Positions 3,885 through 57,114 of a DNA stretch of 64,000 nt are shown here, one piece after another. Both the position numbers and the translations under genes were made by a program. The DNA is from an uncultured Gammaproteobacteria bacterium. GTDB lineage: Bacteria > Pseudomonadota > Gammaproteobacteria > UBA9214. The stretch's first letter is position 1, and each line of letters starts with the position of its first letter. Location: positions 576,001 to 640,000 of the forward strand of contig CAVVHS010000006.1 of NCBI GenBank assembly GCA_963748215.1, read 5' to 3'. Below the pieces are notes generated by a model, which was given only the letters and a program-made list of their open reading frames with translations, was not told the DNA's origin and did not search any database.

Positions 3885-3936
3885 TGGCGGCCGGCCGTCG
3901 CAGAATCAGCGCGGGTTGCCACCGGGAGGTACCCTA

Positions 3937-4584
3937 ATGCCCCCGCGTATGGTGTTGCTGCTGGTCGGGCTCGCACTGCTGACCGTGCTGATCCAGATCA
4001 ACCTGCTGGCGATCGCCTTCGACAAGCTGGGGCTGTCGCCGCACGCCGCCATGACCCTGGTGCTGTTTGCGCTGTTCGGCAGCGCCATCAACCTGCCGCT
4101 GGCGCGGATCACGGCCGAGGCGCCGGCGGAACCCCCGCCGCCCCTGCCCGCCTGGCTGCAACCGCTGCAGATTCCGTTCGAGGGCACGACCCTGATCGCG
4201 GTCAACCTCGGCGGCTGCATCATCCCGGTGGCTTTCTCGGCCTACCTGATGGCGCACAATCCGCTGCCATTCATCGAGGTACTGTCGGCCATCGCCATTG
4301 TCAGCCTCGTCAGCAACCGGCTCAGCCGCCCCATACCGCGACTGGGTATCGCCATGCCGGTACTGGTCGCGCCGTTCACCGCCGCCCTCACCGCCCTGCT
4401 GATCAATGCCGAACACGCCGCCCCGCTGGCCTACATCAGCGGCACCCTCGGCGTGCTGATCGGTGCCGACCTCCTGCGTCTCGGCGATATACGCAAAATG
4501 GGTACACCCCTCGCATCCATCGGCGGCGCCGGCACCTTCGACGGCATTTTCATTACGGGGATCGTGGCGGCGCTGCTGGCCTGA
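3937..4584 (+). CDS. DUF1614-family membrane protein
   Basis: GSAINLP, AVNLGGCIIP, GVLIGADL, SIGGAGTFDGIF motifs. Confidence 0.85.
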   Translation: MPPRMVLLLVGLALLTVLIQINLLAIAFDKLGLSPHAAMTLVLFALFGSAINLPLARITAEAPAEPPPPLPAWLQPLQIPFEGTTLIAVNLGGCIIPVAFSAYLMAHNPLPFIEVLSAIAIVSLVSNRLSRPIPRLGIAMPVLVAPFTAALTALLINAEHAAPLAYISGTLGVLIGADLLRLGDIRKMGTPLASIGGAGTFDGIFITGIVAALLA

Positions 4585-4593
4585 TCATCTATT

Positions 4594-4648
4594 GAAAGAT
4601 CCGGATGCATGCCGCGTAAAACGCGTAAACTGTATCCGGCCCCTCTCT
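4594..4648. repeat. Variant hairpin R0 (CCGGATGCA...TGTATCCGGCCCC)
   Basis: Inverted arms around cgcgtaaaacgcg; the right arm tgtatccggcc recurs at ~11238. Confidence 0.55.
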
Positions 4649-4652
4649 GGGG

Positions 4653-4714
4653 GAAATCGGGGTCAGAGCACAATATTCGCTAATATTAGGAACAATTGTG
4701 ATCTGACCCCAGTT
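4653..4714. repeat. GGGGTCAGA-type hairpin R1 (subfamily A)
   Basis: gaaatcggggtcagagcacaat...attgtgatctgaccccagtt. Confidence 0.9.
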
Positions 4715-4823
4715 GCTCCAGTTGCCATGCCGTTCTAGATTCTTGCAGGAATGACCACTTTGGGTCGCCTTCCGGCTACAAGACAATTCTTTTAGAGAGC
4801 AGTCTACGGATGTGTTCCTGTTG

Positions 4824-5360
4824 CTAGTCCAGTGACAGCGCAGCTATTTTCTGCAATCCCTGGCGGATGTTGTCTTGTGCGGCTCCCTCAACTGCAAGTC
4901 GGATTCGCGTTACGGCAGCGAATGCTTCGCCAGCGGTTGCTGTATGAGAAGACTTTACAGATTCTCTCATGACGGCATTGCCAGTTCTCGTATTCACCAG
5001 TGACCATGCCATTTCCATATCGATCGTGAAAGAAAATCCGAACATGGGTTTTGACATGCTGATCAGTGACACGCTCAGCATGTAATCCGCACCATCGCCC
5101 TTGATCACGCTGGAAAACAGACCGGACGTCTTAATGGATTCCTCGATAGCGGCGGCCAGATCCTCGTTGGATATGTTTGTATAGTCCATGGCGCCGGTTT
5201 CGCCACCACCACTTGTTCTGATGCTGACTGAATACGGATGCCTGGCACCGAACGACGTGTCATCGACCACGAGTGCTTGCTTGCTTGCCGGCGATGCGCA
5301 GCCGGAGAGCCACACAACGATGGAGCATGCCAGTACCTGACGGATAAGATTAATTGGCAT
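4824..5360 (-). CDS. Hypothetical lipoprotein
   Basis: WLSGC lipobox; AT-richer than flanks. Confidence 0.75.
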   Translation of the reverse strand: MPINLIRQVLACSIVVWLSGCASPASKQALVVDDTSFGARHPYSVSIRTSGGGETGAMDYTNISNEDLAAAIEESIKTSGLFSSVIKGDGADYMLSVSLISMSKPMFGFSFTIDMEMAWSLVNTRTGNAVMRESVKSSHTATAGEAFAAVTRIRLAVEGAAQDNIRQGLQKIAALSLD

Positions 5361-5805
5361 TGTCGGCTCCTTGCTTCTGCTTACTGAAGAAGATGTTGGT
5401 GAGTACCTCGTCCACCATTCCCTCCTGCGATTTTCTTGTCATGGATGTATGAAATGAGTTCCCGGTAGCAAGCGGGAAATCTGTTTTTGGCTCTCTCAGA
5501 GTTACGGTCAGTTCGAGCATGTACATCGTGATATCCCAGAACCATTTATCTACGTAGGTGACGATTGCATCGACATCGGCTTCGGTCTCTGACACCTGAA
5601 AGCCCATTTCCAAAAGTTTTCTCTTTATCACGAGATTGGTATCCCTCGTGTCATCGCTGTATTTTTTCACATAGAATAGCTTGAGACTGGACAGGTCTGT
5701 CGTCTGGTCAACGGTTGCCGTCGCCCGGTTTATAGCGCAGCCATGCAGTAAGGCAAGCACCATCAGCAACACAACGATAAATTCCGTTTTTTCCTTTTGT
5801 AGCAT
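5350..5805 (-). CDS. Hypothetical lipoprotein
   Basis: LLHGC lipobox; Y.DKW.WDITMY motif; overlaps the next gene. Confidence 0.75.
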   Translation of the reverse strand: MLQKEKTEFIVVLLMVLALLHGCAINRATATVDQTTDLSSLKLFYVKKYSDDTRDTNLVIKRKLLEMGFQVSETEADVDAIVTYVDKWFWDITMYMLELTVTLREPKTDFPLATGNSFHTSMTRKSQEGMVDEVLTNIFFSKQKQGADNAN

Positions 5806-5851
5806 GGCTTGCTCCTTGTTTTATGTCTTTACCCGGTTGTGCAGCAATATG

Positions 5852-6373
5852 TTACTCAAACGCGTCGTCACTTCCAGAAAATGTTTTATCCTGTCCGGCA
5901 GATACCGATTCCTGTATGTACGCGCGCTTTTCTTCTTCCCATTGTATTTTCGAATTTTCGTCGAGCCAAACTTCAGGTTCCATCCAGATTACTACCTTGT
6001 CCGGGTAGCGCTGGGCAGCTCCGGACGATGCGTCGAATAGAATCCCTATTCCACCACCGAGGATTACATTACCCATGGTTGCGCCGGCAATCGCCTCATC
6101 GAGCTTCAGGGTGGCAGGCTTGTAGCCGGGCTTTGTGCAAGTAACTATTAGCGGGGCATTCCCCCTGGTCATATAAGTCGTTCCGGGTGTGCGGGGTATG
6201 AATGACCGGTTGCCCTTGCTGTCAACCAAAGTACAGCTTGCGCCGGTTACATTCTTTTCAGTAACGACCCGGATGCCCTGGTCCGTACCAGAAGTGATAG
6301 TGGCGCAACTTGATATTGCACAGCCAGCGAATGCCGCGATGCAAATGCATTTTAATTTCCACAAAACTTCCAT
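5852..6373 (-). CDS. Hypothetical lipoprotein with glycine-rich GNVILGGGIG motif
   Basis: Start MEVLWK at 6373; ISSCATI lipobox; C-K-GY and GNVILGGGIG..DA.SGA pattern. Confidence 0.75.
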   Translation of the reverse strand: MEVLWKLKCICIAAFAGCAISSCATITSGTDQGIRVVTEKNVTGASCTLVDSKGNRSFIPRTPGTTYMTRGNAPLIVTCTKPGYKPATLKLDEAIAGATMGNVILGGGIGILFDASSGAAQRYPDKVVIWMEPEVWLDENSKIQWEEEKRAYIQESVSAGQDKTFSGSDDAFE

Positions 6374-6527
6374 GTTGCTCTGCCGTCGCAAGTTATATCC
6401 CGTCCAATCGCTAATACATGAAACCGGTAATAAACAAGCGCTCCGGGTACTGATCCTTGTCAGTTTGGGTGGTAATAATATGCAATACAGGGGACAGCGC
6501 CTACCTCTGGAGTGGAATGACGAGGGT

Positions 6528-6588
6528 AAATCGGGCTCAGAGCACAATATTCGCCAATATCAGGAACAATTGTGCTCTGAGCCCAGTT
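6528..6588. repeat. GGGGTCAGA-type hairpin R2 (subfamily A)
   Basis: Near-identical to R1; the core change GGGCTCAGA/TCTGAGCCC is compensatory. Confidence 0.9.
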
Positions 6589-6597
6589 GTTTTCGCT

Positions 6598-6679
6598 ACC
6601 GGCTAAGCCGCCCCATACCGCGACTGGGTATCGCCATGCCGGTACTGGTCGCGCCGTTCACCGCCGCCATCACCGCCCT
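6598..6679 (+). repeat. 82-bp copy of an internal part of the DUF1614 gene (source 4316-4397)
   Basis: Direct comparison gives 80/82 identical. Confidence 0.92.
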
Positions 6680-7269
6680 TTGAATACTGCCTTGAGTATG
6701 AAATGGGTCGGCATGAATATGAGTAAGGGGTACGCACACATCAGCAACGCCAGATACAGAGGACCGGAGACCCATGTCTGGGGCGGGTTGCCGATACCAA
6801 AGACCCAGTTGAGGTTTCTTTCCGGATCGGTGGCCAGGTAACAGACCGGAAGCAGAACCCAGATCAACACTGTCTGCGCATAAACGGCACGCCTGTCGTA
6901 GCCCAGACGATGGATCATCCAGAGCAGTAGCACGGGCAGGACGACATGGAACAGGGAAAAGAACCTGAACAATAGCGTGTGACGGGATTCAAACATGTAC
7001 CCGGTCGCGTTGAGGCCGATCACATCGAAACCTGCAATCAGGCGCAGAAAATAATCCAGGTTCCAGGCCAGCTCCGGCAGCAGCACGCCAACCGCCATCA
7101 TACTGGTGAGAAACCGGTTCTCCATCCAGAGCGCCGGCACAACAGACAGCAGCGCGATATCCGATAACCAGAGAAAATTCGCCGGCCCCCGCTCCATCCA
7201 GTAAACAGGCACAAGGATACAGACAAAGAGCGTACAGGCTATCTTCAGCCACAGGGAAAGCATCATCAC
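6670..7269 (-). CDS. Hypothetical integral membrane protein
   Basis: Multiple TM segments; NFLWLSDI, SLFH, N.NWVFG motifs. Confidence 0.8.
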   Translation of the reverse strand: MMMLSLWLKIACTLFVCILVPVYWMERGPANFLWLSDIALLSVVPALWMENRFLTSMMAVGVLLPELAWNLDYFLRLIAGFDVIGLNATGYMFESRHTLLFRFFSLFHVVLPVLLLWMIHRLGYDRRAVYAQTVLIWVLLPVCYLATDPERNLNWVFGIGNPPQTWVSGPLYLALLMCAYPLLIFMPTHFILKAVFKGR

Positions 7270-7360: not shown

Positions 7361-7380
7361 CAGATCAATCGAGTCTGACA
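7361..7380. repeat. Isolated right arm of a subfamily C hairpin
   Basis: cagatcaatcgagtctgac is identical to 14271-14289. Confidence 0.75.
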
Positions 7381-7399: not shown

Positions 7400-7486
7400 C
7401 GTCATTCCCGCGAAGGCGGGAATCCAGGAATTTTTGTGCCCCTGCTAATCAGTGACTGGCTGGATACCCGCCTTCGCGGGTATGAC
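7400..7486. repeat. CGTCATTCCCGCG-type REP-like palindrome pair
   Basis: cgtcattcccgcgaaggcgggaatccag ... ctggatacccgccttcgcgggtatgac. Confidence 0.8.
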
Positions 7487-9267: not shown

Positions 9268-9392
9268 GGTGGCTCCTGTGCATGCGCAAAGGTTATCCGG
9301 AACCTGCACAGGGTACCGGCCGACACCGCTCATGAAAAGCCGGCAGCCGCAGGGGGCTTCAGTGTCACCCGGCAGGAACCGATGTAATCTTC

Positions 9393-9447
9393 AGGGTCAG
9401 ACGCCAATAATTGCCGGACACCCGAAGATCGATGGCCTCTGACCCCG
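9393..9447. repeat. GGGTCAGA-type hairpin R3 (divergent)
   Basis: agggtcagacgcca...tggcctctgaccccg. Confidence 0.7.
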
Positions 9448-9501
9448 TGTAGCGTTTGCTATACTTGTTTTCAGTTGCTGACATAGGAGGGTGTGGCAGT
9501 G

Positions 9502-9810
9502 ATGGAAGATTCAGGCAAGCCCCGCGAGGTGCTGTCAATCACCGAAAGTGCCGGCGATGTACCGGACTGGATCATGTCGCTCGCCCCGGTCGGGGTGGCA
9601 TTCGTCTGTTACGTCAGCATCATCCTGGCCGCGGGCATTGATCCGAAAGAGAAAATCATCGCCTACGGCGCGGCGGCAGCTTTCATCGGCCTGGAATGCT
9701 ACTGGATACTCCGCGGCCTGCAAAACAATCATTTCGGCACGATGGTGACGGGGTTCCTCGGCGCGGCAATGGCAGTACTCGTCCTCGACCTGTACCTGTC
9801 ACTGCTATGA
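9502..9810 (+). CDS. Small hypothetical membrane protein (gene X, source of two duplicated fragments)
   Basis: AGGAGG RBS upstream; three hydrophobic segments; start could be GTG 9493. Confidence 0.7.
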   Translation: MEDSGKPREVLSITESAGDVPDWIMSLAPVGVAFVCYVSIILAAGIDPKEKIIAYGAAAAFIGLECYWILRGLQNNHFGTMVTGFLGAAMAVLVLDLYLSLL

Positions 9811-9843
9811 TGGCCGTGAAGCCGGGGGCGCTGCAAATGCAGC

Positions 9844-9905
9844 AAAGGTACCAGAGCGCAATTGCCGCGAATATTCGGGAAACGTGTGCCCTGACACCAA
9901 CGGTT
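9844..9905. repeat. Degenerate subfamily A hairpin R4
   Basis: ggtaccagagcgcaatt...gcgaatattcggg...gtgtgccctgacacc. Confidence 0.65.
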
Positions 9906-10400
9906 CTATTGCTTGACCGGTGAGGCGGCGGGTGGCGAATTCGCCTCTTTCGCACCCATGTAGGCAGTCAGTGACTTGAATCCGCCTTTCAGCACGTACA
10001 CATTCTCAAAACCGATATGACGCAGCGCGGTCCCGGCCGCAGCGGCCCGTGTACCGGACGCGCACACGATCACCACGGTCTTGTCTGTCGGTATGCGATC
10101 CAGGCCGGCCTCGGTAAACAACTCGTTAAACGGAATGACCTGTGAATCCGGCAGCGTCATGCTGTAGACAGCGGCCTCGGCGGGTGTCCTGATATCGATC
10201 ACCGCCAGCGGTTCCTTTGACTTCACCTTCTCTACGAACACATCCGGTGGCATCAGGTGCAAGGCCTTGCCGGCATCGGCACCCTGCACTGGCGCGAACA
10301 ACTTCGCATAGCTTTCCGCCAACGCCTTGTCATAGGACCAGGCCGACGTCGCAAAGGTCATGACAACCATCAGCAGAAGCGTTTCAGGCAGGTGTTTCAT
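9906..10400 (-). CDS. Exported rhodanese-like domain protein
   Basis: Signal peptide MKHLPETLLL...SAWS; IDIRTPAE, VCASGTRA, LKGG. Confidence 0.85.
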   Translation of the reverse strand: MKHLPETLLLMVVMTFATSAWSYDKALAESYAKLFAPVQGADAGKALHLMPPDVFVEKVKSKEPLAVIDIRTPAEAAVYSMTLPDSQVIPFNELFTEAGLDRIPTDKTVVIVCASGTRAAAAGTALRHIGFENVYVLKGGFKSLTAYMGAKEANSPPAASPVKQ

Positions 10401-10425
10401 AACAGCAGTTCTCCATTGATGAATC

Positions 10426-10490
10426 GAAACCGGAGTCAGATACGAGTTTTCGATTATATAAGGGAAAACCGGGATCTGACCCCGGTTTTC
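10426..10490. repeat. Hairpin R5 (subfamily B)
   Basis: gaaaccggagtcagat...gggatctgaccccggttttc. Confidence 0.9.
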
Positions 10491-10498
10491 TAATATTG

Positions 10499-10584
10499 AT
10501 TTCGGCACAACGGTGACGGGGTTCCTCGGCGCGGCACTGGCAGTACTTGTCCTCGACAGGTACCTGTCGCTGGCCTGAAGGCCG
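10499..10584 (+). repeat. 86-bp diverged copy of the 3' end of gene X (source 9731-9816)
   Basis: Ungapped alignment gives 75/86 identical; includes the TGA stop. Confidence 0.9.
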
Positions 10585-10598
10585 ATCCGTCAGGCACG

Positions 10599-10660
10599 GA
10601 AATCGGGGTCAGAGCAGAATTGTTTCTGATATTCGCGAATATTGTGCGCTGACCCCGATT
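10599..10660. repeat. Hairpin R6 (subfamily A, loop inverted relative to R1/R2)
   Basis: gaaatcggggtcagagcagaatt...attgtgcgctgaccccgatt. Confidence 0.9.
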
Positions 10661-10685
10661 ATTCGATTATTTCTATTTCCGCAGA

Positions 10686-11123
10686 TTACCTGTCGCGTAG
10701 TGCTTTTATGTCGCCAGGTGTAAACGTGGTGTAGGTCCTTGACCATTTGATTTTACCTGTATTGTTCTTCTTTTCTTGTTTGTAGTGATCGCCCTCCTTG
10801 TATATCGGGACGCAATTCTCCTTCGTGTTATTCCAGTTAATGCACAGGCCCTCTTCAGTCGCGCGCCAGACGCCAGTTTTATTGGTCTTGCCCTTAACCG
10901 AATACACTTCCCCATCATCGGCGAAGTAATTAATGAAAGGCTCTGAGTAAAAACTACTCATGCCCTGACTGCGGCCCTCCACGTAATCACCTTCGACAGT
11001 GTTGCCTGAAAACAGGGATCGAATCTCATCCGCGGACAAATTGTCGGATGCAGATGACGGGATTGTTGCAAGCAGAATGATTGCCGAGAAGAAAGCCCTG
11101 ATGAATGCCTGGTGCGTGTACAT
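10686..11123 (-). CDS. Exported hypothetical protein (DUF995-like)
   Basis: Signal peptide; LSADEIRSLFSGNTVEG, G.W....GLC..W....NC; AT-rich. Confidence 0.7.
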   Translation of the reverse strand: MYTHQAFIRAFFSAIILLATIPSSASDNLSADEIRSLFSGNTVEGDYVEGRSQGMSSFYSEPFINYFADDGEVYSVKGKTNKTGVWRATEEGLCINWNNTKENCVPIYKEGDHYKQEKKNNTGKIKWSRTYTTFTPGDIKALRDR

Positions 11124-11197
11124 ATGCGTGCCTCATTATTTGGACGGTTATTACTGTTAAATTGAAGTGTAGACGACTCAAGCATAAAACCTCAATT

Positions 11198-11256
11198 GAA
11201 ATCGGGGTCAGAGCACAATTGTTTCTTCTGTGGAAAATGTATCCGGCCACTTTTTC
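11198..11256. repeat. Hybrid hairpin R7 (A-type left arm, R0-type right arm)
   Basis: gaaatcggggtcagagcacaatt...aaatgtatccggccactttttc. Confidence 0.75.
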
Positions 11257-11260
11257 CGGT

Positions 11261-11324
11261 CCGGTCGGGGTGGCATTCGTCTGTTACGTCGGCATCATCC
11301 TGGCTGCCGGCATTGAACCGAAAG
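11261..11324 (+). repeat. 64-bp copy of an internal part of gene X (source 9586-9649)
   Basis: Ungapped alignment gives 60/64 identical. Confidence 0.9.
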
Positions 11325-11328
11325 GTGC

Positions 11329-11393
11329 GAAACCGGAGTCAGATACGAGTTTCCGATAATATAAGGGAAAACCGGGATCTGACCCCGGTTTTC
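11329..11393. repeat. Hairpin R8 (subfamily B)
   Basis: Near-identical to R5. Confidence 0.9.
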
Positions 11394-11638
11394 TATTGTT
11401 GTAAAGCGTAAAGCATCACCGCAACACCCACTGAGGTCAGGATAAGCGAAATGATATTCTTTGTTTTATTTGTTTTGATTGCTGTGTATGCCATACCGAT
11501 ATTCATACTGGATAGCGGACCATGTCGTTCGTTATCTTTTTTGTATGATGCGGGACCAAGCCGAACAAACATGAGGCCGATTCCCGCAACAATCAGAATC
11601 AATCCGTAAAATGCAAAGATCAAACCGTCAGCGCTCAT
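11393..11638 (-). CDS. Small hypothetical 2-TM protein
   Basis: 81-aa AT-rich ORF with hydrophobic ends; stop overlaps R8; purine-rich RBS-like stretch upstream. Confidence 0.6.
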   Translation of the reverse strand: MSADGLIFAFYGLILIVAGIGLMFVRLGPASYKKDNERHGPLSSMNIGMAYTAIKTNKTKNIISLILTSVGVAVMLYALQQ

Positions 11639-11836
11639 ATATTATCTTCTTGTAGCCTAACTACCATTGGGCCAACCAATGAAAGCATCAAGACGACTGC
11701 TGATTCGCATAACATTTATATTATCTCGATAAGACCTGTCACTTTCCCAGCTTACAGGCATGATATACGGATTGAAACAGACCCGAAAATCGAACCCTGA
11801 ATTCGCTCAACCCGCCCCTCCCGTCTAATACAACAC

Positions 11837-11915
11837 GAAACCGGGGTCACGAAACCGGGGTCAGAACCGAGTACCCGATAATATAAGGGGAAGCCGGGAT
11901 CTGACCCCGGTTTTC
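11837..11915. repeat. Hairpin R9 (subfamily B) with tandemly duplicated left arm
   Basis: gaaaccggggtcac gaaaccggggtcag ... gggatctgaccccggttttc. Confidence 0.9.
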
Positions 11916-11940
11916 TCATCGGGAACCGGCCCGGGATTTT

Positions 11941-13167
11941 TCAATCAGCGGCCTGCCTGCGGCAGGACACATACCACAGCAGCAGCGCGATCGACAGCAA
12001 CAACGCCTGCCCGATGACGAAATGGTGCCGCTGTGTGTGCAGGGCCGGCACGGCGATGCCGGCAACCGCCGCGTTGATCGCCATCTGGAAGAAACCCTGC
12101 ATCGACGCCGCCGTGCCGCGGTGATGCGGGAAACAGTCGAGGGCGAGAATGGTGATCGCGGGCATGAGCATGGCGGTGCCTACGGCATAGATCACGAGCG
12201 GTCCGATGGTGAACACGACGGTGGCCTCGAACAGCCCCACCTGGACGAGGTTGAGCACGACAGCAAGGACAAGGACACCGAATCCGGTACTGACAATGCG
12301 CAGCGGCGACAGGTATCGCGACAGTCGGCCGGAGGCGAAAGCGCCCAGCATCAGGCCGGCGACCATCGGGATGAACTGGACACCGAAATCATCGGTGCCC
12401 AGGCCGAGGAAGTCGTAGATGACCGTCGGCGCACCGGCGATGTAAAGAAAGAGTCCGCCGAAGCTGAAACCCAGGCTCAGGATCATCAGCGGGAACTGGC
12501 GGTGCTGCAAGGTCCGGGTGTAGACACTTGCCACGACCGAGGGCCGTACCGACTGGCGCTGGGCCTCGGGCAGGGTCTCGCGGATAACCGCCGTCAGACC
12601 GATCAGCAGCGCCCCGAGCAGGCACAGAAACCAGAACACGCTGCGCCAGCCGTAGTGATCATGCAGCCACGCACCCAGTACCGGCGCGATGGCCGGCGCC
12701 AGCGCGAACACCAGCATCACCTGGGACATCGCCCGGTGCGCGCTTGTCGTATCGTGCGCATCGCGGATCATCGCCCGCCCGGCGATCAGGCCGCCGCTGG
12801 CCGCGAAACCCTGCAGCGTGCGCCACACGAGGAAGGCCGTGGCATCAGCGGCCAGCGCGCAGCCTATGGACGCCAGGACATACAGCGACAGGCTGCCCAT
12901 GATCACCCGCCGGCGCCCGAAGCGGTCGGCCAGCGGCCCCCACAGCAGCGTCGAGGCCGCAAAGGCCGCCAGGTACACCGACAGGCTCTGACTCAGCAGC
13001 GCGCGACTGATACCGAACGTCGCCTCGATGTCCGGGAACGATGGCAGGTAGGCATCGATGGAGAACGGCCCCACCATCGACAGCAGCGCGACGATGAAGG
13101 TCAGGCGCGTGTGTACGCCTGGACGGATAACGGCGTTTTCGGAAGGAGGAAATGGTGGCTGGCTCAT
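11941..13167 (-). CDS. Bcr/CflA-family multidrug efflux MFS transporter
   Basis: PFSIDAYLPSFP, GPLADRFGRR, APAIAP.LG; ~12 TM segments. Confidence 0.92.
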   Translation of the reverse strand: MSQPPFPPSENAVIRPGVHTRLTFIVALLSMVGPFSIDAYLPSFPDIEATFGISRALLSQSLSVYLAAFAASTLLWGPLADRFGRRRVIMGSLSLYVLASIGCALAADATAFLVWRTLQGFAASGGLIAGRAMIRDAHDTTSAHRAMSQVMLVFALAPAIAPVLGAWLHDHYGWRSVFWFLCLLGALLIGLTAVIRETLPEAQRQSVRPSVVASVYTRTLQHRQFPLMILSLGFSFGGLFLYIAGAPTVIYDFLGLGTDDFGVQFIPMVAGLMLGAFASGRLSRYLSPLRIVSTGFGVLVLAVVLNLVQVGLFEATVVFTIGPLVIYAVGTAMLMPAITILALDCFPHHRGTAASMQGFFQMAINAAVAGIAVPALHTQRHHFVIGQALLLSIALLLWYVSCRRQAAD

Positions 13168-13947: not shown

Positions 13948-14229
13948 GTTTGATCCAGCCCCCGTGCTTGAGTACGTAGTTGCAATGCGATCCGTTTATT
14001 TTACCAGCATTGCCAGCTGTATCCAGCGATCAGCCAGAGACTTGATCAAAAGAAAAAATGCGCGTCGTGAACCTGAGCCTTGTTCGCAGCGGCAAGTCTG
14101 CTTTTTCAGGGGGTTCGTCGATAATCCTCTCGCACAACAGGATAAAGATGATGTAATTGTCTGGAAAGTCTACTTCGTTGGTCGGCCACTCGAACATGCG
14201 GTCGAGGAAGATGTAAATGGTGTCAGGAC

Positions 14230-14299
14230 AATCAATAGGGTCAGACACCATTGATTCGTCAAGACATCGTCAGATCAATCGAGTCTGACCCCATTGATT
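14230..14299. repeat. Hairpin R10 (subfamily C)
   Basis: aatcaatagggtcagac ... gtctgaccccattgatt. Confidence 0.85.
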
Positions 14300-14538
14300 C
14301 AATTTTCTGTGGGTTTAGAAACGCCCGTGAACTTGAAAATGAGTTTGCTTAGGTACCTTTCAGTCGGACGAAAAACATACGCTGCACCAGCAGGCATTAT
14401 TGTGAAGAAAAACCTCTCTTCATTGTCCTCTGCGGCAAATAGTACCAATACAGCGATAAGGGCAATCGTGATCAGCGCATACATTGCCCAAGCTCTTTTA
14501 AGGTAGGATTGATATTTACCGTTTTGAATGTTTGTCAT
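14299..14538 (-). CDS. Small hypothetical membrane protein
   Basis: AT-rich ORF MTNIQNGKY...; two hydrophobic segments; stop overlaps R10. Confidence 0.6.
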   Translation of the reverse strand: MTNIQNGKYQSYLKRAWAMYALITIALIAVLVLFAAEDNEERFFFTIMPAGAAYVFRPTERYLSKLIFKFTGVSKPTEN

Positions 14539-15076
14539 AATGTGAAATACATAGTGCCGCTTATCGGTAATTTGTCTGTACAAAATACGATGGCTTTAAT
14601 AACCTTTTAGTTGCCTAACAGTATAATCGAAGTAATCTTTAGTATTACTACTTCTGCGTAACCGTTCTTTTGTGCGAATAAGCGATTCCGCATAGCATCA
14701 ACGGCAATGTAACGCATCAAGGCTTTCATTAAGACGGAAAACGGCCGCAGGATCAATACCCTGTCACTGGATCTACCCACTTCAACCGCGAAACCGCCCT
14801 CCATTAACAAGCGAGAGAGCGCCAGAACGGCCAGGATGACTGGCGTTTTCGCCACCTGTTTCGATGCGTTACGGATTCTGCGTTACGACCGGCTGCAGAC
14901 GCCTGCGGGATGGAAGGTGGATGAGCACTAATCGTAATGGCTCACTGACAACCCGATCAGCCAGTATATATGTACTAATCCAATAATTATATTTCTGCCG
15001 CCAAAATTGACGACCAGGACATTCTGCGCGCCCAGCGTGGCATCGCAATGTGACTATGTAAATTTGGTTTTATTTT

Positions 15077-15254: not shown

Positions 15255-17598
15255 CTAAACCCGCACCTCAAACCCACTAATCGCAATCTTCAACACCTCG
15301 TCGATCCGCGCCACCGGAATGAAGGTCATCGCCGCCCTCACCTCCTCCGGCAGTTCCTCCAGGTCGGCCTCATTGTCTTTCGGCAGGATCACTCGCTTGA
15401 ACCCGGCACGGTGCGCAGCGAGCATCTTCTCCTTGATGCCGCCGACCGGCAGCACCAGGCCGCTGAGCGTGATCTCGCCGGTCATGGCGATGTCGTCGTG
15501 GATCGAGGCGCCTGTGTAGGCAGAGGCCAGCGCGGTGGCCATGGTCACGCCGGCGGACGGGCCGTCCTTGGGCGTGGCGCCGGCCGGCACGTGGATGTGC
15601 ATGCCGGACTTGCGGATCAGGTCGGGTGCGATACCCAGTTCCTTCGCCTGTGACCAGATATAGCTTTGGGCAGCGCGTGCGGATTCCTGCATCACGCTGC
15701 CGAGCTGGCCGGTCAGGGTGAGGTCCTTGCCTTCCGGCAACATCACAGCCTCGACGTACAGCACCTCGCCGCCGGTCTCGGTCCAGGCCAGGCCGGCCAC
15801 GATGCCCGGGATCAGTTCCGCGCGCTTGCCCTCGCGCGCCATGCGCGGCGGGCCGAGATACTCGGTGATGAGTTCTTCGGTCAGCGTGACCGGCTCGGTG
15901 TGACCCTCGGCGATGCGTGTGGCGACCTTGCGCACGATGCGGCCCAGGGCGCGTTCCAGCGAACGCACGCCGGCCTCACGCGTGTAGTTGCGGATGACGT
16001 AGGCGAGCGAAGTGTCGTCGATGACGAGCTGTTCCTGCTTGACGCCGGCGTTATCCAGGGTACGGCCGAGGATGTAGCGGCGCGCGATCTGCAGCTTTTC
16101 CGCCTCGCTGTAGCCGGACAGGCGCAGCACCTCGATGCGGTCGAGCAGCGGCGCGGGGATGGTGTCGAGCGTGTTGGCGGTCACGACGAAGAACACCCCG
16201 GACAGGTCGAAGGGCTGGTCGAGGTAGTTGTCGCGGAACTCGTTGTTCTGCGCCGGGTCGAGGATCTCCATCAGGGCGGCGGCCGGATCGCCGCGGAAAT
16301 CGCGGCCCAGCTTGTCGATCTCGTCCAGCATCAGCAGCGGGTTGCTGACCCCGGCGCGGCGCACGGCGCGGATGATGCGCCCGGGCATGGCACCGACGTA
16401 GGTGCGGCGGTGGCCGCGCAGTTCCGCCTCGTCGTGCAGGCCGCCCAGGCTCATGCGTTCGAAGGTACGGCCCAGCGCGCGGGCGATGGACTGGCCGAGC
16501 GAGGTCTTGCCGACACCGGGCGGGCCGACGAAGCACAGGATCGGTGCCCGTGCATCGGGATTGAGTTTCATGACCGCCAGGTGCTCGATGATGCGGTCCT
16601 TGACCTCCTTGAGGTCGTAGTGGTCCGTATCCAGCACCTCGCGCGCCTGCACCAGGTCGAGCTTGTCCTCGGTGCGCTTCGTCCACGGCAGGTCCAGCAC
16701 CAGGTCGATGTAGCTGCGCATGGTCTGGTAGTCGGGCGAGTTGGCCGACATGCGTTCCAGCCTCGAGAGCTCCTTGTCGATCTCCTTGCGCACCGCTTCG
16801 GGTAGCTCTGCCGCCTCCAGGCGTTCGCGCAGCCCGGCCACCTCGGCCTGCTCGGGCGAGGATTCCCCGAGCTGCTCCTGGATCTCGCGCAGCTGCTGGC
16901 GCAGCATCATCTCGCGCTGCTCCTTGCTCATTTTCGTCGGTGACCGCGCTGGAGATCTGCTGCTGGATCTCCAGCACCTGGATCTCGTGGTTGAGGTAGT
17001 CGACGATCAGGCGCAGCGCATCGAGCTGGCTGTTGGCGGCCAGCAGCTGGTACTGCTTATCGATACTGATCGAGATCACCGCGGACAGTACGTAGGCCTG
17101 CTCGATCGGCTTGTCCAGGTCGGAGACCAGCTGCTTGAGGTCGATCTGCATCTGCGCGGGCCCGAGTTCCAGCATGCGCGCCGCCTGGTCGAGCATGGTG
17201 CGGTGCAGGGCCTCGAGCTCCGAACCGGTATCCTCCAGTTCGGGCAGATAGGCGGACTGGCATTCGAGGAACGGCGACTCGCTGGTGAGCAGCTCGCGCT
17301 CGATGCGCCGGCCGGCCTGCAGCACCAGGTTGATGGTGCCCTGGGTGCGCTGCATGCGCTTGATCACGCACAGCGTGCCGACCGGGTACAGATCATCCGC
17401 GCCCGGTTCCTCGACGGTGGCGTCGCGCTGCGTGAACACGACGATGCGCTTGTCCTCGGTCGCCAGTGCCGCCTCGACTGCGGCGACCGAACGCGCGCGG
17501 CCGGCGGTCACCGGCATGACCATGTGCGGGAAGATGACGCTGTTCTTGAGCGGGAACACCGGCAGGATCAGGGACGTGGCGTGGGAATCGGTCGTCAT
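15255..17598 (-). CDS. lon: Second Lon (endopeptidase La) with an apparent +1 frameshift near 16932
   Basis: LON N-domain ([15 protein letters not shown]) in ORF 16051..17598; AAA+ GPPGVGKTS and PKDGPSAG in ORF 15255..16931. Confidence 0.88.
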
Positions 17599-25397: not shown

Positions 25398-26933
25398 TCA
25401 TCGCGGCAGGGCAGCCGGGTGCGCACCGGTAACCTGTAACAGGCCATCGTAATTGCCGTCGCTCGCCAGCCGGTAACCCGTGACGGTATTGCGGGCGGCG
25501 TAGACATGGTCCTCGTACCACAGTGGCACGTACGGGAGCTGTTCCAGCAGGTGCGCCTGCACGGCACAGTAGCCCGTACCCTGCTCTGTCAGCGTGGCGC
25601 CCTGCTCCGCCTGCTCGATGAGCCGGTCTATGGCGGCATCGGCAAAACGCCCGCGATTGGCACCCGCAGGCGGCAGCGAACTGCTGTGAAAGGCATAACG
25701 GAAAATATCCGGCGTCTTGATGCCGACCCACATCAGGCTGTACATCTGGAAATTGCCGGCCTTGATGTCACCGAAAAACGTACCCCAGTCGTAGCTGCTC
25801 AGATGCATGCGGATACCGACCTCGGCCAGCTGTTGCTGAATGATGGTGGCAATGCGCAGGCGCACCGGGTCGGTGGAGGTCTTGTAGTCGAGCACCAGTG
25901 GCCGCTCCCCGGTATAGCCGGCCTGCTGCAACAGGCCGCGTGAGCGCTGCGGATCATATTCCAGCGGCTGCAGCTGCGCGTTGCCGGCCCAGTGCTCCGG
26001 CGGCAGCAGCGCCGCGGCCGGTCGCGCCGCCCCGCCCAGCACGTAGCGGACGATGGCATCGCGATCGATGGCATGGGCAACCGCGCGACGGACCGCCAGT
26101 TCGCCGGTCACCGGTGACGCCAGGTTGAAACCGAGGTAGGCGAAATTGCTGCCCGGACCGCGCACCACATCGATGCCCGGCTGTCGTTCCAGGTAACGCT
26201 GCAGCTCGGCCGGCAGGTCGTTCTGCAGCAGGTCGATCTCGCCACGCAGCAATTTCAGGACGCGCACGGTGGGGTCGCCAATGCGCAGGAACTCGAAACG
26301 CTGGCGATCGGTGCGTCGTTCCAGCTGCAGGCGCCCCGGTTCCGGCCAGCCGGTGAAGCGGAATGGGCCGCTGCCGAGCGGGGCCTTGTGGAACGGGGTG
26401 CCGGCGTCGATTCCGCGCGCCGGCAGGATGCCGATCACCAGGTAGCCCGGAAACAGCGGATCGGCGCGATCCAGCAGGAAATCCAGCGTGTCGTCGTCAA
26501 CCACCCGGATGTCGTCGATCAGCTGCAGCGTGCCGGCATGCGGTGACTCGCTGCCCGGAGCCAGTATCGATCGGTAGGTCGCCGCGACGTCGGTTGCCAG
26601 CAACGGCGTGCCGTCGTGGAAGGCATCGCGCCGGGGATCCAGGTGAAAGCGGTAATGGCGCGGGGTGAGTTGCTCCCAGTGTGCGAGCGCGGCGACCGGA
26701 CGCACCTGGTCATCGAAGTCTACCAGGCGCCGGTACAGCAGACGGTTGATGCGCGCCGAGGTCGCGTCGGTGGCATAGCGCGGGTCCAGGTTGGCCGGGC
26801 TACTGGCCAGGCCGAAGCGGATGATGTCATCCGGTGCCGGTGTGCAGCCCACTATCACCAGCAAAACCACCGACAGCATTGCCGACAGTCGCAGCAGCCG
26901 GAGACCCGCTTTCGCCAGACTAGTGCTGATCAT
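25398..26933 (-). CDS. Peptide ABC transporter substrate-binding protein (family 5)
   Basis: LDPR, FHDGTP..A.DV, GSGPF, VRRAVAHAIDR. Confidence 0.88.
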   Translation of the reverse strand: MISTSLAKAGLRLLRLSAMLSVVLLVIVGCTPAPDDIIRFGLASSPANLDPRYATDATSARINRLLYRRLVDFDDQVRPVAALAHWEQLTPRHYRFHLDPRRDAFHDGTPLLATDVAATYRSILAPGSESPHAGTLQLIDDIRVVDDDTLDFLLDRADPLFPGYLVIGILPARGIDAGTPFHKAPLGSGPFRFTGWPEPGRLQLERRTDRQRFEFLRIGDPTVRVLKLLRGEIDLLQNDLPAELQRYLERQPGIDVVRGPGSNFAYLGFNLASPVTGELAVRRAVAHAIDRDAIVRYVLGGAARPAAALLPPEHWAGNAQLQPLEYDPQRSRGLLQQAGYTGERPLVLDYKTSTDPVRLRIATIIQQQLAEVGIRMHLSSYDWGTFFGDIKAGNFQMYSLMWVGIKTPDIFRYAFHSSSLPPAGANRGRFADAAIDRLIEQAEQGATLTEQGTGYCAVQAHLLEQLPYVPLWYEDHVYAARNTVTGYRLASDGNYDGLLQVTGAHPAALPR

Positions 26934-27384
26934 CCGTCCGGGCCAGTTCCATGCGCAGGCGCACCCGCAGGCGCCGAAAGGTCACCGGGTCAAGCATGTC
27001 GGGCAGGATCACCAGCTGTCGGCGCAGGCGGCTGCCCGTGCGGAGTTGCAGGATAACCAGCCACGGCTGCACGAAGGCCTGCCGGCACAGGGTCGCGCGG
27101 CTCACCGCACCGTCCTGCAGTTGCAGGTGACAGGTTCCGTCACCGTCCCAGGTCAGGGAGTGAATGCACCGAGGTGCCGCACGGCTGGCCTGACGCGGCC
27201 AGTGCCAGGCGAGGCTGGCCAGGATGCCGGTTGCGATGAGCAGCATGACCGGAATCGGTAACGTGGTAAACGGCAGCTGCAGGGCGGCTACCGCGTGCAC
27301 CAGCAACAGCCAGGCCGCCATGCGGCGTGAAGCCCCCAGCTCAAGACGCAGCGGCGTTGCGTATTTCCCGGACAAGGTTCGCAA
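26920..27384 (-). CDS. ygfX: YgfX-family membrane protein
   Basis: PD.L....FRRLRV.LR motif; directly downstream of sdhE. Confidence 0.75.
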   Translation of the reverse strand: MRTLSGKYATPLRLELGASRRMAAWLLLVHAVAALQLPFTTLPIPVMLLIATGILASLAWHWPRQASRAAPRCIHSLTWDGDGTCHLQLQDGAVSRATLCRQAFVQPWLVILQLRTGSRLRRQLVILPDMLDPVTFRRLRVRLRMELARTDDQH

Positions 27385-43302: not shown

Positions 43303-43430
43303 CTAGCCCGCATTTCTCACCGGGTTGCAGTTAACCGACATAATGAGCCGAAACCATGAAGCTAATACCCATTCGTCAACCAACAGTGTGTCAGTGGGCG
43401 GTGCCTAACCCGGTGAGAAATGCGTGCTAG
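43303..43430. mobile_element. 128-bp MITE, copy 1
   Basis: TIRs ctagcccgcatttctcaccggg / cccggtgagaaatgcgtgctag; homologous to 56987-57114. Confidence 0.8.
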
Positions 43431-46048: not shown

Positions 46049-48457
46049 TCAGTGCGCAGTCAGATTTTTTACCTTTGCCTTCGGCTTCGTGGTCTTGCGG
46101 GGTGCGCTCTTGGTCTCGGTATTCGGCAGCGGAGTCGGCTGGTGCGTGAGCGCGACCTCCAGAACCTCGTCGATCCAGCGCACCGGCCTGATATCCAGCT
46201 TGTCCTTGACGTTGCTGGGGATCTCGGCAAGATCCTTCCGGTTTTCCTCAGGGATCAGCACGATGGAGATCCCGCCACGATGTGCCGCCAGCAGTTTCTC
46301 CTTCAGTCCACCGATCGGCAGCACCTCGCCGCGCAGGGTGATCTCACCCGTCATGGCCACATCGGCCCGCACCGGAATATTGGTCAGCGCCGACACCAGC
46401 GCGGTGCACATGCCGACACCGGCACTCGGCCCGTCCTTCGGGGTGGCCCCTTCCGGCACGTGAATGTGGATATCGTATTTCTGATAAAACTCGGGATCGA
46501 TACCCAGCGATGCCGCGCGACTGCGCACAACGGTCATGGCCGCCTGGATGGACTCCTGCATGACGTCACCCAGCTGCCCGGTGTGGATCATCTTGCCCTT
46601 GCCCGCGACAATAGCCGACTCGATGGTCAGCAGTTCACCACCGACTTCTGTCCAGGCCAGACCGGTGACCTGGCCGACCTGGTCATTCTCTTCCGCGCGT
46701 CCGTAACGGAAGCGCTTGACGCCGAGGTATTTCTCCAGGTTCTTCGGCGTGACGGCAACCTTCTTGCCCTTCTCGTGCAGCACCAGTTCCTTGACCACCT
46801 TGCGGCAGATCTTGGATATTTCGCGCTCGAGATTGCGCACACCCGCCTCGCGTGTGTAGTAGCGCACAATGTCGCGTATCGCATGCTCACTGATGGAGAT
46901 CTCGTTCTCCTTCAGGCCGCTGTTTTCGACCTGTTTCTTGAGCAGGTAGCGCATGGCGATGTTGATCTTCTCGTCCTCGGTATAGCCGGGGATACGAATG
47001 ACTTCCATGCGATCGAGCAACGGTGCGGGAATGTTCAGGGTATTCGCCGTGGCGACGAACATCACGTCGGACAGGTCGAAGTCGACCTCCAGGTAATGAT
47101 CCGCAAATGTGTTGTTCTGCTCGGGATCCAGCACCTCCAGCAGCGCGGACGAGGGATCGCCACGGAAATCCATGGACATCTTGTCCATTTCATCCAGCAG
47201 GAACAGCGGATTCCGCACACCCATCTTGGACAGGTTCTGGATGATCTTGCCGGGCAGTGAACCGATATAGGTACGGCGGTGGCCACGGATCTCGGCCTCG
47301 TCACGCACGCCGCCCAGCGACATGCGCGTGAATTTGCGGTCGGTGGCGCGTGCGATGGAACGTCCCAGCGAGGTCTTGCCGACGCCGGGCGGACCCACCA
47401 GGCACAGGATCGGGCCCTTCAGTTTCTTGACCCGTTGTTGCACGGCCAGGTACTCGAGGATGCGTTCCTTGACCTTTTCCAGGCCGTAGTGATCCTCTTC
47501 CAGTATGCTTTCCGCTGCGGCAAGGTCGTGGCGGATCTTGGAGCGTTTTTTCCAGGGCACACTGACCAGCCAGTCGATATAGTTTCTGACCACCGTCGCC
47601 TCGGCGGACATCGGTGACATCATCTTCAGCTTGTTGAGTTCGGTGGTGGCCTTTTCCTTGGCTTCCTTGCTCATGCCGGCCTTGTCGATTTTCTGCTCCA
47701 GTTCCTCGATCTCGTTCGGCGCATCCTCCATGTCACCGAGTTCTTTCTGAATAGCCTTCATCTGCTCGTTCAGATAGTACTCGCGCTGACTCTTCTCCAT
47801 CTGCTGCTTGACGCGGCCACGGATGCGCTTCTCGATCTGCAGGATGTCGATCTCGCCCTCGATCAGCACCATCAGGCGCTCGAGGCGGGCGCGGTCGTTG
47901 TCGATCTCGAGGATCTTCTGTTTCTCCTCGAGCTTGAGCGACATGTGTGCGGCGATGGTATCCGCCAGGCGTCCTGGTTCCTCGATACCGGACAGCGACG
48001 TGAGTATTTCCGGCGGCACTTTCTTGTTCAGCTTCACGTACTGGTCGAACATGGCCAGCAGCGAACGTGTGAGAATTTCCAGTTCCTTTTCGTCCTCTTC
48101 GGCTTCCGGCTGCATTAACTCGACATGCGCCGTGAAGAACGCATCGGTATTGTCATAGCCGGTAATGCGCACGCGCTCGGCGCCCTCGACCAGCACCTTC
48201 ACGGTGCCGTCTGGCAGCTTGAGCAATTGCAGGATAGTGGAAAGCGTTCCGATTTCGTGGATGTCGGCTATCTCGGGATCGTCGATTTCGGCATTCTTCT
48301 GTGCGACCAGCAGGATCTTCTTGTCTTCCTGCATCGCGGTATCCAGCGCATTGATCGATTTCTCGCGCCCGACAAACAGCGGGATGACCATGTGCGGGTA
48401 TACAACCACATCCCTGAGGGGCAAGACGGGTATCGCTTTCGAAGCCTGGTCTGTCAT
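46049..48457 (-). CDS. lon: ATP-dependent protease La
   Basis: Full-length; [17 protein letters not shown]; clpX-lon-hupB synteny. Confidence 0.97.
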
Positions 48458-56252: not shown

Positions 56253-56990
56253 ATGCCCTGCACCCTGTTCATTTCGGACCTGCACCTGGATCCGGAACGG
56301 CCGGCGATCACCGCCCTGTTTCTCGACTTCCTCGCGGCGCGTGCGGGTCACGCCGATGCGCTGTACATCCTGGGCGACCTGTTCGAGGCATGGATCGGCG
56401 ATGACGATGATTCGGAGCTGAACCGGGGCGTGTGCCACGAACTGGCACGCTGCGCTGCGGCGGGCACCGCCGTTTACGTCATGCACGGCAACCGCGACTT
56501 CCTGCTCGGCGAGCGCTTTGCGAAGCAGTCGCACTGCACGCTGCTCGATGATCCCGCCTGCATCGACCTGTACGGCACGCCCACCCTGCTCATGCACGGT
56601 GATCTGCTGTGCACGGATGATACCGAATACCAGGCCTTTCGGGTCCAGGCGCGCAGCGCGGCATGGCAGGAAGAACTGCTGGCGAAAACTCTGCAGGAAC
56701 GCCGTGCCATCGCCAGCGAAATGCGCCGGGTCAGCCGCGAGAAGACCGGCGGCAAGCCTGAATCCATCATGGATGTCAACGCGACAGCGGTCATCGAGCG
56801 CATGACAAGGCACGCCACGATCCGCTTGATTCACGGTCACACGCACCGCCCGGACATACACGAACTGGTCATCGACGGCAGGCCCGCACAGCGCATCGTG
56901 CTGGGCGACTGGTACGAACAGGGCAGCGTGCTCGAATGTACGCCGAACGGATGCGAGCTGGAGTCACTCGAACCGCGGCGGACTTCCTAG
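56253..56990 (+). CDS. lpxH: UDP-2,3-diacylglucosamine hydrolase
   Basis: SDLH, GDLF, GNRDF, HGD, HGHTH, LGDW. Confidence 0.95.
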   Translation: MPCTLFISDLHLDPERPAITALFLDFLAARAGHADALYILGDLFEAWIGDDDDSELNRGVCHELARCAAAGTAVYVMHGNRDFLLGERFAKQSHCTLLDDPACIDLYGTPTLLMHGDLLCTDDTEYQAFRVQARSAAWQEELLAKTLQERRAIASEMRRVSREKTGGKPESIMDVNATAVIERMTRHATIRLIHGHTHRPDIHELVIDGRPAQRIVLGDWYEQGSVLECTPNGCELESLEPRRTS

Positions 56991-57114
56991 CCCGCATTTC
57001 TCACCGGGCAGCTGTAGACAGACATAATGAATTGAAATCACGAAAGTGATACCCATTCAGCAAACAACAGTGTGTCATCAGGCGGTGCCTATCCCGGTGA
57101 GAAATGCGGGCTAG
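56987..57114. mobile_element. 128-bp MITE, copy 2
   Basis: Perfect 22-bp TIR ctagcccgcatttctcaccggg; interior similar to copy 1. Confidence 0.8.

Follow-up and report, generated by a model that had tools for sequence, protein, structure and literature searches.

What are short, diverged pieces of a gene doing next to hairpin-forming repeats, downstream of the intact copy of that same gene? This question is raised by a 64,000-nt stretch of DNA from an uncultured gammaproteobacterium (contig CAVVHS010000006.1, positions 576,001 to 640,000; hereafter the window), in which two fragments of a small membrane protein gene, here called gene X, lie among near-palindromic repeats. The original prediction for this locus held that the fragments are either homology anchors, left when modules entered from related strains, or captured guide or target pieces. 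We find a third fragment of the same kind that derives from a different gene, and all three lie at or near the edges of REPINs, which are doublets of repetitive extragenic palindromic (REP) units that form hairpins. We give about an even chance to the reading that these relics are non-functional partial copies of the gene at the left border of each islet of accessory genes, left as recombination scars of single-crossover origin at a REPIN-rich accessory hotspot. In general character the window is ordinary chromosome, with lon, clpXP, tig, sdh, an ABC transporter, and tRNAs.

Partial copies of border genes at hairpin edges

The intact genes, their relics (marked by primes), and the gene that adjoins the third relic are arranged as follows, with positions counted from the first nucleotide of the window.

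3916..4584, plus strand: gene Y, a DUF1614 membrane protein of 222 aa (Pfam PF07758, E 7e-55); source segment 4313-4397
6595..6679, plus strand: relic Y′, an 85-nt copy of Y 4313-4397 (82/85 identical, E 2.7e-33)
6670..7269, minus strand: gene Z, encoding a conserved membrane protein; complete, including the native C-terminus
9493..9810, plus strand: gene X, a small membrane protein of 105 aa (protein alignment A1); source segments 9586-9649 and 9731-9816
10499..10584, plus strand: relic X′, an 86-nt copy of 9731-9816, which is the 3′ end of X with its stop codon and 6 nt further (75/86 identical, E 5.5e-23)
11261..11324, plus strand: relic X″, a 64-nt copy of 9586-9649 in the middle of X (60/64 identical, E 8.1e-21)

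A self-BLAST of the whole window (plus strand, E ≤ 1e-6) recovered both copies of gene X, ungapped and in the same orientation as the gene, at the places where they had originally been reported. The search returned 10 direct matches: three gene-fragment pairs, four hairpin pairs, one pair of lon paralogues, one intragenic repeat, and one 128-nt repeat resembling a miniature inverted-repeat transposable element (MITE). Because direct matches are so few, and because those of gene X have the E values given above, the copies are far beyond chance. Besides the lon pair, the 64 kb contains three gene-fragment repeats, every one of them within 34 nt of a hairpin. The third, Y′, lies about 5 kb upstream of the gene X pair and was absent from the earlier description. 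A test proposed for the first two relics asked if any further hairpin cluster holds a copy of an adjoining gene, and Y′, a copy of the DUF1614 gene beside the hairpin called H2, provides a favorable answer.

Genes X and Y are both full length, whereas the relics span 64 to 93 nt, are in frame, and in one case hold a stop codon. Their placement relative to the hairpins is close. The left edge of X′ is the exact end of hairpin A1, the right edge of X″ falls 1 to 3 nt before hairpin A2, and the left edge of Y′ is 5 nt past H2 (6524-6589), such that these three edges are 0 to 5 nt from a REPIN; the left side of X″ is 34 nt from a truncated REPIN. The claim that each gene X copy sits between an A-type and a B-type hairpin holds for X′, which is flanked by A1 and a B-type copy, but left of X″ there is only half a hairpin (11198-11226), with no fold (z 0.18). 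The copies are also nested, with the order 9586 < 9731 < 10499 < 11261, or left copy 1, left copy 2, right copy 2, and right copy 1. The similarity of X″ permits a weak gapped extension back to about position 11237. Nucleotides 11234-11251, in the 34 nt that separate the truncated REPIN from X″, match the spacer after gene Y (4627-4644) at 16 of 18 positions, which is marginal (score 28 against a shuffle maximum of 24).

The similarity between X and X′ runs, with gaps, beyond the stop codon and through the spacer into a B-type hairpin (9724-9898 versus 10492-10656). Because this alignment spans the stop codon, the spacer, and the B REPIN as they occur after X, X′ is the tail of a second haplotype of the X 3′ end and its REPIN, joined to a different downstream gene.

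The right end of Y′ is a 10-nt microhomology junction. Its last 10 nt (6670-6679) double as the stop codon, the last two codons, and one further base of gene Z, and this 10-mer, TCACCGCCCT, is found at three sites in the window (4388, 6670, and one more) versus 0.2 expected. Gene Z itself is undamaged: its homologues (n=3201) are mostly 197 to 198 aa long with a conserved C-terminal ...VF(K/N)GR, and Z ends in ...VFKGR. A microhomology at this position is as expected for a short-repeat deletion in a redundant copy.

REPIN-type hairpins and the modules that they bracket

There are eight hairpin copies in the window, in two clusters (4650-6589 and 9838-11915), and all are intergenic or overlap stop codons only. 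They are listed here without strand.

4650..4715: REPIN-like hairpin H1, B type (-20.2 kcal/mol, z -7.3); 78-87% identity over ~60 nt to the hairpins of related loci L005, L071, and L100
6524..6589: REPIN-like hairpin H2, B type (-19.8 kcal/mol, z -6.5); 91% identity to H1
9838..9903: degenerate B-type REPIN just 3′ of X; 61% identity to H1, fold not significant (z 0.49); aligns with the B hairpin after X′
10423..10498: REPIN-like hairpin A1 (-17.5 kcal/mol, z -4.9); 94.6% identity to 11328-11401 over 74 nt
10596..10661: REPIN-like hairpin B, whose loop has the opposite orientation to that of H1 and H2 (-18.5 kcal/mol, z -4.8); 89% complementary to H1 and H2
11198..11226: truncated B-type REPIN, left half only; 97% identity to 10599-10627, no fold
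11326..11401: REPIN-like hairpin A2 (-16.4 kcal/mol, z -4.5); the stop codon of the following gene is contained in its right flank
11834..11915: REPIN-like hairpin A3 (-21.8 kcal/mol, z -4.6)

Six of the eight fold with free energies of -16 to -22 kcal/mol (z -4.5 to -7.3; 62-66 nt). Both types are close to palindromic over ~62 nt, with an AT-rich center, and their stems are nearly perfect, having single mismatches only and no bulged bases. A 14-nt core motif occurs 15 times versus 0.64 expected and is confined to the two islets. In the A copies, the right half resembles an intrinsic terminator by score, on the plus strand in the case of A1, and A1 has a 9-nt right flank in common with A2. Spacings between hairpins are irregular (173, 599/730, and 522 nt; range 173-730), with genes between the repeats. 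An exact 14-nt tandem duplication of A3's own start precedes A3 (11834-11861).

The same hairpin pattern is widespread. An exact-pattern scan of one genome per species gave at least 134 stretches, and 80 related loci of at least 1500 nt (about 2-4 kb) were compared further. Among the matches listed are many Burkholderiales and Gammaproteobacteria, so that the pattern spans Gamma- and Betaproteobacteria. Full-length hairpins with 78-87% identity to those of the window occur in Thiohalophilus (L005), Thiohalobacter (L071), an Ectothiorhodospiraceae metagenome-assembled genome (MAG; L001/L002 and L131-L133), Muproteobacteria (L100), and Acidiferrobacterales (L110). Several relatives have multiple hairpin loci, and in other genomes the hairpins also occur singly. 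In hairpin alignment A2, which holds 16 copies, the stem is kept, with compensatory changes at 6 of 17 pairs.

In two of these loci, L058 and L043, hairpin halves in inverted orientation flank a gene whose product of ~235 aa matches Pfam Y1_Tnp. Its best NCBIfam match is the REP-associated tyrosine transposase (RAYT; REP_Tyr_transpos), at 70.7 bits, under the 80-bit cut-off. A tblastn search places a Y1 transposase gene near the motif in 4 of the 80 loci (L058, L043, L055, and L050). The RAYT-like gene lies at 821-1708 in L058, 1174-2022 in L043, and 1308-2021 in L055, where the copy also matches Y1_Tnp. Relatives of this protein family number at least 7989 and come mostly from short contigs. 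The window's hairpins are REPIN-type repeats, each a doublet of a ~30-nt REP unit, kin to a RAYT-like family of Y1 (HUH) transposases.

The resemblance to described REPIN-RAYT systems is substantial. Each window hairpin consists of two inverted REP units, recurs within the window at extragenic sites, often stands just after a stop codon, and is terminator-like, and in relatives hairpin halves of the window type flank an IS200-like Y1 transposase gene. PMC3337134 reports REP units in inverted orientation around a RAYT gene. There are also differences. According to PMC3733652, REP units carry a GTAG or CGTC tetranucleotide tag at one end; neither tag is found at the ends of the alignment A2 consensus. 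The window repeats instead resemble a class described in the abstract of the same paper, wherein some RAYT genes are flanked by long terminal inverted repeats unrelated to GTAG repeats. In addition, the window-type core is common to two proteobacterial classes, and the repeats bracket accessory genes and abut relics of neighboring genes. A limited search of the literature on REPIN/RAYT, genomic-island remnants, and duplication junctions found no report of gene relics at REPIN edges.

The bracketed genes, and the gene that closes the second islet, are as follows.

4824..6373, minus strand: islet 1 cargo, three small open reading frames (ORFs) at 4824-5360, 5350-5805, and 5852-6373; GC content of 4585-6594 is 0.497
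9906..10400, minus strand: rhodanese-domain protein with a signal-peptide-like N-terminus (Pfam PF00581, E 4.6e-13)
10686..11123, minus strand: protein of 145 aa that belongs to no known family and has an N-terminus resembling a signal peptide; module GC content 0.46
11393..11638, minus strand: 81-aa membrane protein; weak match to a CCC-motif membrane protein family, below cut-off
11941..13167, minus strand: major facilitator superfamily (MFS) transporter gene, the right border of islet 2 (Pfam PF07690, E 2.8e-45; GC content 0.655)

Each hairpin-bracketed module contains one to three genes, all on the minus strand, that encode small secreted or membrane proteins and, in one case, a rhodanese. 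Module GC content is 0.45-0.56, versus 0.655-0.687 in four measured flanking genes, among them gene Y, the glutamate-synthase-like gene, and the MFS gene. Judging from a lipobox seen in their translations, the islet 1 ORFs appear to have lipoprotein-like N-termini; one gives a weak match, below the cut-off, to the Sbal_3080 lipoprotein. The modules carry no element-encoded site-specific recombinase. A similar setting is seen in L005, where a hairpin lies among small low-GC membrane-protein genes adjoining an MFS gene, and L001 has a single gene bracketed by two hairpins. Comparison of the islets with the related loci by tblastx gave high-GC noise only.

How the relics may have arisen

In Campbell-type insertion-duplication, a circle that carries the 3′ part of a gene gives rise to an intact gene and a 5′-truncated copy on either side of the insert. 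The layout of X and X′ matches this outcome, but the present case would be natural and recurrent and would have its closure junctions at REPIN edges. In our preferred reading, a circularized or tandemly duplicated segment, made up of the 3′ part of the border gene and a downstream module, would be joined to the resident gene by a single crossover of this type. The gene would stay intact, while a 5′-truncated copy would be displaced downstream, before the older downstream DNA. The closure junction of the segment would coincide with the outer REPIN edge or lie no more than 34 nt away, and serial events would produce the nested order of the copies. Displaced copies would then be trimmed by short-repeat deletion, which would explain the truncation of Y′ at Z; for X″, further loss has to be assumed. 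The segment bearing X′ would have come from a diverged strain, and candidate processes for making the closure junctions at REPIN ends are RAYT cleavage and hairpin breakage. The view that the fragments are homology anchors left by incoming modules comes close to this account, in that partial copies of the adjacent gene do lie at module junctions, although the foreign origin that it also supposed is not proven.

We consider it unlikely that the REPIN ends go further and serve as active break-and-join points. In that case, RAYT or hairpin processing would excise circles whose DNA extends from the edge of a REPIN to some arbitrary site upstream, and these, carrying the gene 3′ part and the module, would re-enter by recombination in that gene. 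If this were true, REPIN-RAYT systems would mediate the flow of accessory genes at hotspots, and successive events could be read from the relics.

Two comparisons help to place the preferred single-crossover reading. Genomic islands in the 3′ ends of genes or tRNA genes leave partial target copies as att repeats and accrete in tandem. As in such islands, the insert is bounded in all three cases here by direct repeats of part of the target gene, the gene is whole, and the repeats are nested as in serial insertion. The window differs from them in having no integrase, modules of only 0.6-2 kb, repeats that are imperfect across the whole 64-93 nt, junctions at REPIN edges, and two of three relics that stop short of the gene end. 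The other comparison is locus L023 from a Pseudomonadota MAG, where a 233-nt 5′ fragment and the full PD-(D/E)XK nuclease gene from which it is copied enclose a PIN/MazE toxin-antitoxin pair (251-483 versus 1291-1523; 93% identity). This arrangement is a 5′ mirror image of the window relics. Because no hairpin is present at the L023 junction, the nearest hairpin motif being ~480 nt away, partial duplicates beside inserted modules are not peculiar to REPINs.

Several observations weigh against the single-crossover reading. Since two of the three relics do not continue to the gene 3′ end, extra deletions must be assumed. No RAYT gene is present in the window, as judged by tblastn. A genome scan limited to the hairpin pattern revealed neither an empty site nor a donor allele nor a circular form, and self-BLAST of the 80 related loci gave no further clear hairpin-adjacent gene relic. 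Gene X has a comparatively low GC content (0.591) and a tiny family, with 13 homologous clusters in a search of 5.8 billion proteins, and it may therefore be accessory rather than a conserved anchor. The longest identical block in X′, at 25 nt, is short for homologous recombination; the M>T replacement in X′ falls on a nearly invariant residue; and the ratios of nonsynonymous to synonymous differences (pN/pS) of 0.36-0.88, which rest on 3 to 10 changes, are not the signature of two constrained alleles.

Whether the relics are diverged alleles or local copies can be approached through their codons. Relative to X, X′ has three synonymous differences and the replacements M>T, M>L, L>R (CTG>AGG), and L>A (CTA>GCC) (pS 0.20, pN 0.10). 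X″ has two synonymous differences together with S>G and D>E (pS 0.12, pN 0.04), and Y′ has one synonymous and two nonsynonymous differences from its source (pS 0.04, pN 0.04). The expectation that foreign alleles would differ mostly at synonymous positions is not borne out, with six synonymous and eight nonsynonymous codons over the three pairs, counts that are too small to decide. Five of the six replacements in X′ and X″ nevertheless use residues found in other family members at variable positions (12 non-self members, alignment A1). By manual counts from this alignment, family member P0009 agrees with X′ at 22 of 25 residues, versus 21 of 25 for the local X, and member P0004 agrees with X″ at 20 of 21, versus 19 of 21. 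The diverged-allele view is the better reading for X′, given its 87% identity to X, the family-typical residues encoded by AGG and GCC, and its own hairpin. For X″ (94% identity) and Y′ (96%), a local copy is possible. A diversity-generating retroelement, which would confine mismatches to adenines of the template copy, was considered as a source of the differences and rejected, as no reverse transcriptase is encoded by the scanned ORFs and, by manual count, an A occurs in either copy at just 3 of the 11 positions where X′ and X differ.

A local origin for all three relics is the substance of an alternative that we regard as possible but doubtful. A replication fork would stall at a REPIN hairpin, and the nascent strand would switch to DNA 0.8-2.3 kb upstream, copy 64-93 nt, and return at a microhomology; or a tandem duplication joined at the REPIN would later be mostly deleted, the copies of the resident gene diverging since. 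The three copies are direct, short, hairpin-adjacent, and sourced no more than 2.3 kb upstream, the exit junction of Y′ has its 10-nt microhomology, and the high identities of Y′ and X″ and the near-neutral pN/pS values all fit this model. These distances, the Y′/Z homology, and a hairpin at the break are also features shared with the template-switch and microhomology rearrangements described in PMC1428787; unlike in those, the copies here diverge by up to 13%, and the gene downstream of X′ is not the one that follows X. X′ is the main obstacle: it has diverged by 13%, yet the REPIN that it abuts still shares 94.6% identity with another copy (74 nt); a REPIN of its own comes next, and then a gene other than that after X; and its 2- and 3-nt codon replacements yield family-typical residues. 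Moreover, none of the three entry junctions shows a microhomology.

The arrangement of the hairpins themselves invites other explanations. The outer halves of each REPIN pair have the same left and right placement as those that flank the transposase gene of L058 and L043, the fragments abut the outer ends of the units, and L001 likewise has one gene bracketed by two REPINs. Such features would suit composite single-strand transposons, in which REPIN-gene-REPIN units are moved in trans by a RAYT and the gene pieces are either flanking DNA cut at a pseudo-site or halves of gene copies hit by insertion. We judge this to be distinctly unlikely. No identical module was seen elsewhere, the window has no RAYT, the three junction sites lack a common target motif, and the model leaves unexplained why all pieces derive from the immediate neighbor. 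In passages of PMC3337134, excision is described for REP doublets only and not for cargo. Stacked alleles of one gene with different downstream genes are also what a misassembly would be expected to look like if strain haplotypes of one locus were placed serially in a metagenome-derived contig, and the related records are mostly MAGs. An artefact is nonetheless very improbable. An assembler would have met no common repeat at the breakpoints to lead it astray, the fragments measure just 64-93 nt, three distinct junctions stand beside REPINs, the precise microhomology junction leaves Z intact, and a protein search lists gene X on a contig of ~1.05 Mb.

The remaining candidates are array-like systems. 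CRISPR-associated transposons carry self-matching "homing" spacers, and the window similarly has pieces of a nearby chromosomal gene between structured repeats. A guide or spacer array, either CRISPR-like or a REPIN-RAYT "bait," would have this appearance, and one preprint (10.1101/2024.07.17.603846) notes an earlier suggestion of a CRISPR-like role for REPIN-RAYT. The pieces might otherwise act within cargo transcripts as antisense regulators of X; because the cargo genes are antisense to the fragments, read-through RNA would be complementary to X mRNA. We hold any such role to be highly improbable. The pieces are in frame, one has a stop codon, and all are far longer than spacers. A regular direct repeat with spacers of similar size is absent; instead there are two palindromic REPIN types in both orientations, irregularly spaced with genes between them, and the same hairpins stand singly in other genomes. 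No Cas protein, integrase, transposase, or reverse transcriptase was found among the 57 window ORFs scanned against Pfam, and the window has no tns genes. Rfam gave no match at gathering score for the hairpin and relic region, and a relaxed Rfam search gave microRNA-type look-alikes alone (23-33 bits versus cut-offs of ~80). A sigma-70 promoter scan of 9300-12000 found no sites. A CRISPR array is rejected on these grounds, and with it the proposal of captured guide or target pieces, the hairpins being REPIN-type repeats of a RAYT-like family rather than array repeats.

Integron attC sites have asymmetric stems with bulged bases and an R-box consensus. If the hairpins were attC sites, a decayed cassette array of the integron type would account for co-oriented small promoterless ORFs that are each followed by a ~65-nt imperfect palindrome, but we find this extremely improbable. 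The stems are nearly perfect and unbulged, only the innermost AAC...GTT fits the attC consensus, and hairpin halves flank a Y1 transposase gene in relatives. An integron cassette array was accordingly rejected, there being no IntI among the 57 ORFs. The same ORFs include no tyrosine recombinase, and the array is bordered by the MFS gene and the glutamate-synthase-like gene.

REPINs are usually viewed as vertically inherited, cargo-free repeats whose role is unclear. In the window, they are at every junction of two small accessory-gene islets, beside relics of the border genes. If this pattern is genome-wide, REPIN edges would be preferred joints for assembling and reshuffling small modules without integrases, and the relics would order past insertions. 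If it is not, the relics would be ordinary recombination scars. Either way, they point to no new guide or spacer system.

Other repeats and genes in the window

Other repeats lie outside the two hairpin clusters. Between gene Z and the glutamate-synthase-like gene lies a second, unrelated palindromic family, comprising a 27-nt inverted pair that is 93% complementary (7401-7427 and 7460-7486) and similar units extending to ~7640; a 27-nt identical match is present in a betaproteobacterial MAG locus (L064). A degenerate hairpin-like pair at 14231-14300, with the same GGGTCAGAC/GTCTGAC core as the hairpins, lies between small low-GC ORFs (14030-14855) beside a parA-like gene. No gene relic was found at this pair, which has an exact 19-mer in common with 7361-7379. 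The 128-nt intergenic repeat detected by self-BLAST (43303-43430 and 56987-57114) has 83% identity and terminal inverted repeats of ~24 nt; it is MITE-like and unrelated to the hairpins.

Two further genes merit mention. In addition to the canonical lon (46049-48457) in a clpXP-lon cluster, the window encodes a second, shorter Lon-like protease of 558 aa (15255-16931) that lacks the N-terminal substrate-binding domain, with ~66% DNA identity over 1.2 kb. A CptA-like membrane protein of a toxin family (26920-27384; Pfam Cpta_toxin) adjoins the succinate dehydrogenase genes, and its surroundings may be a neighborhood of the SdhE/CptB type.

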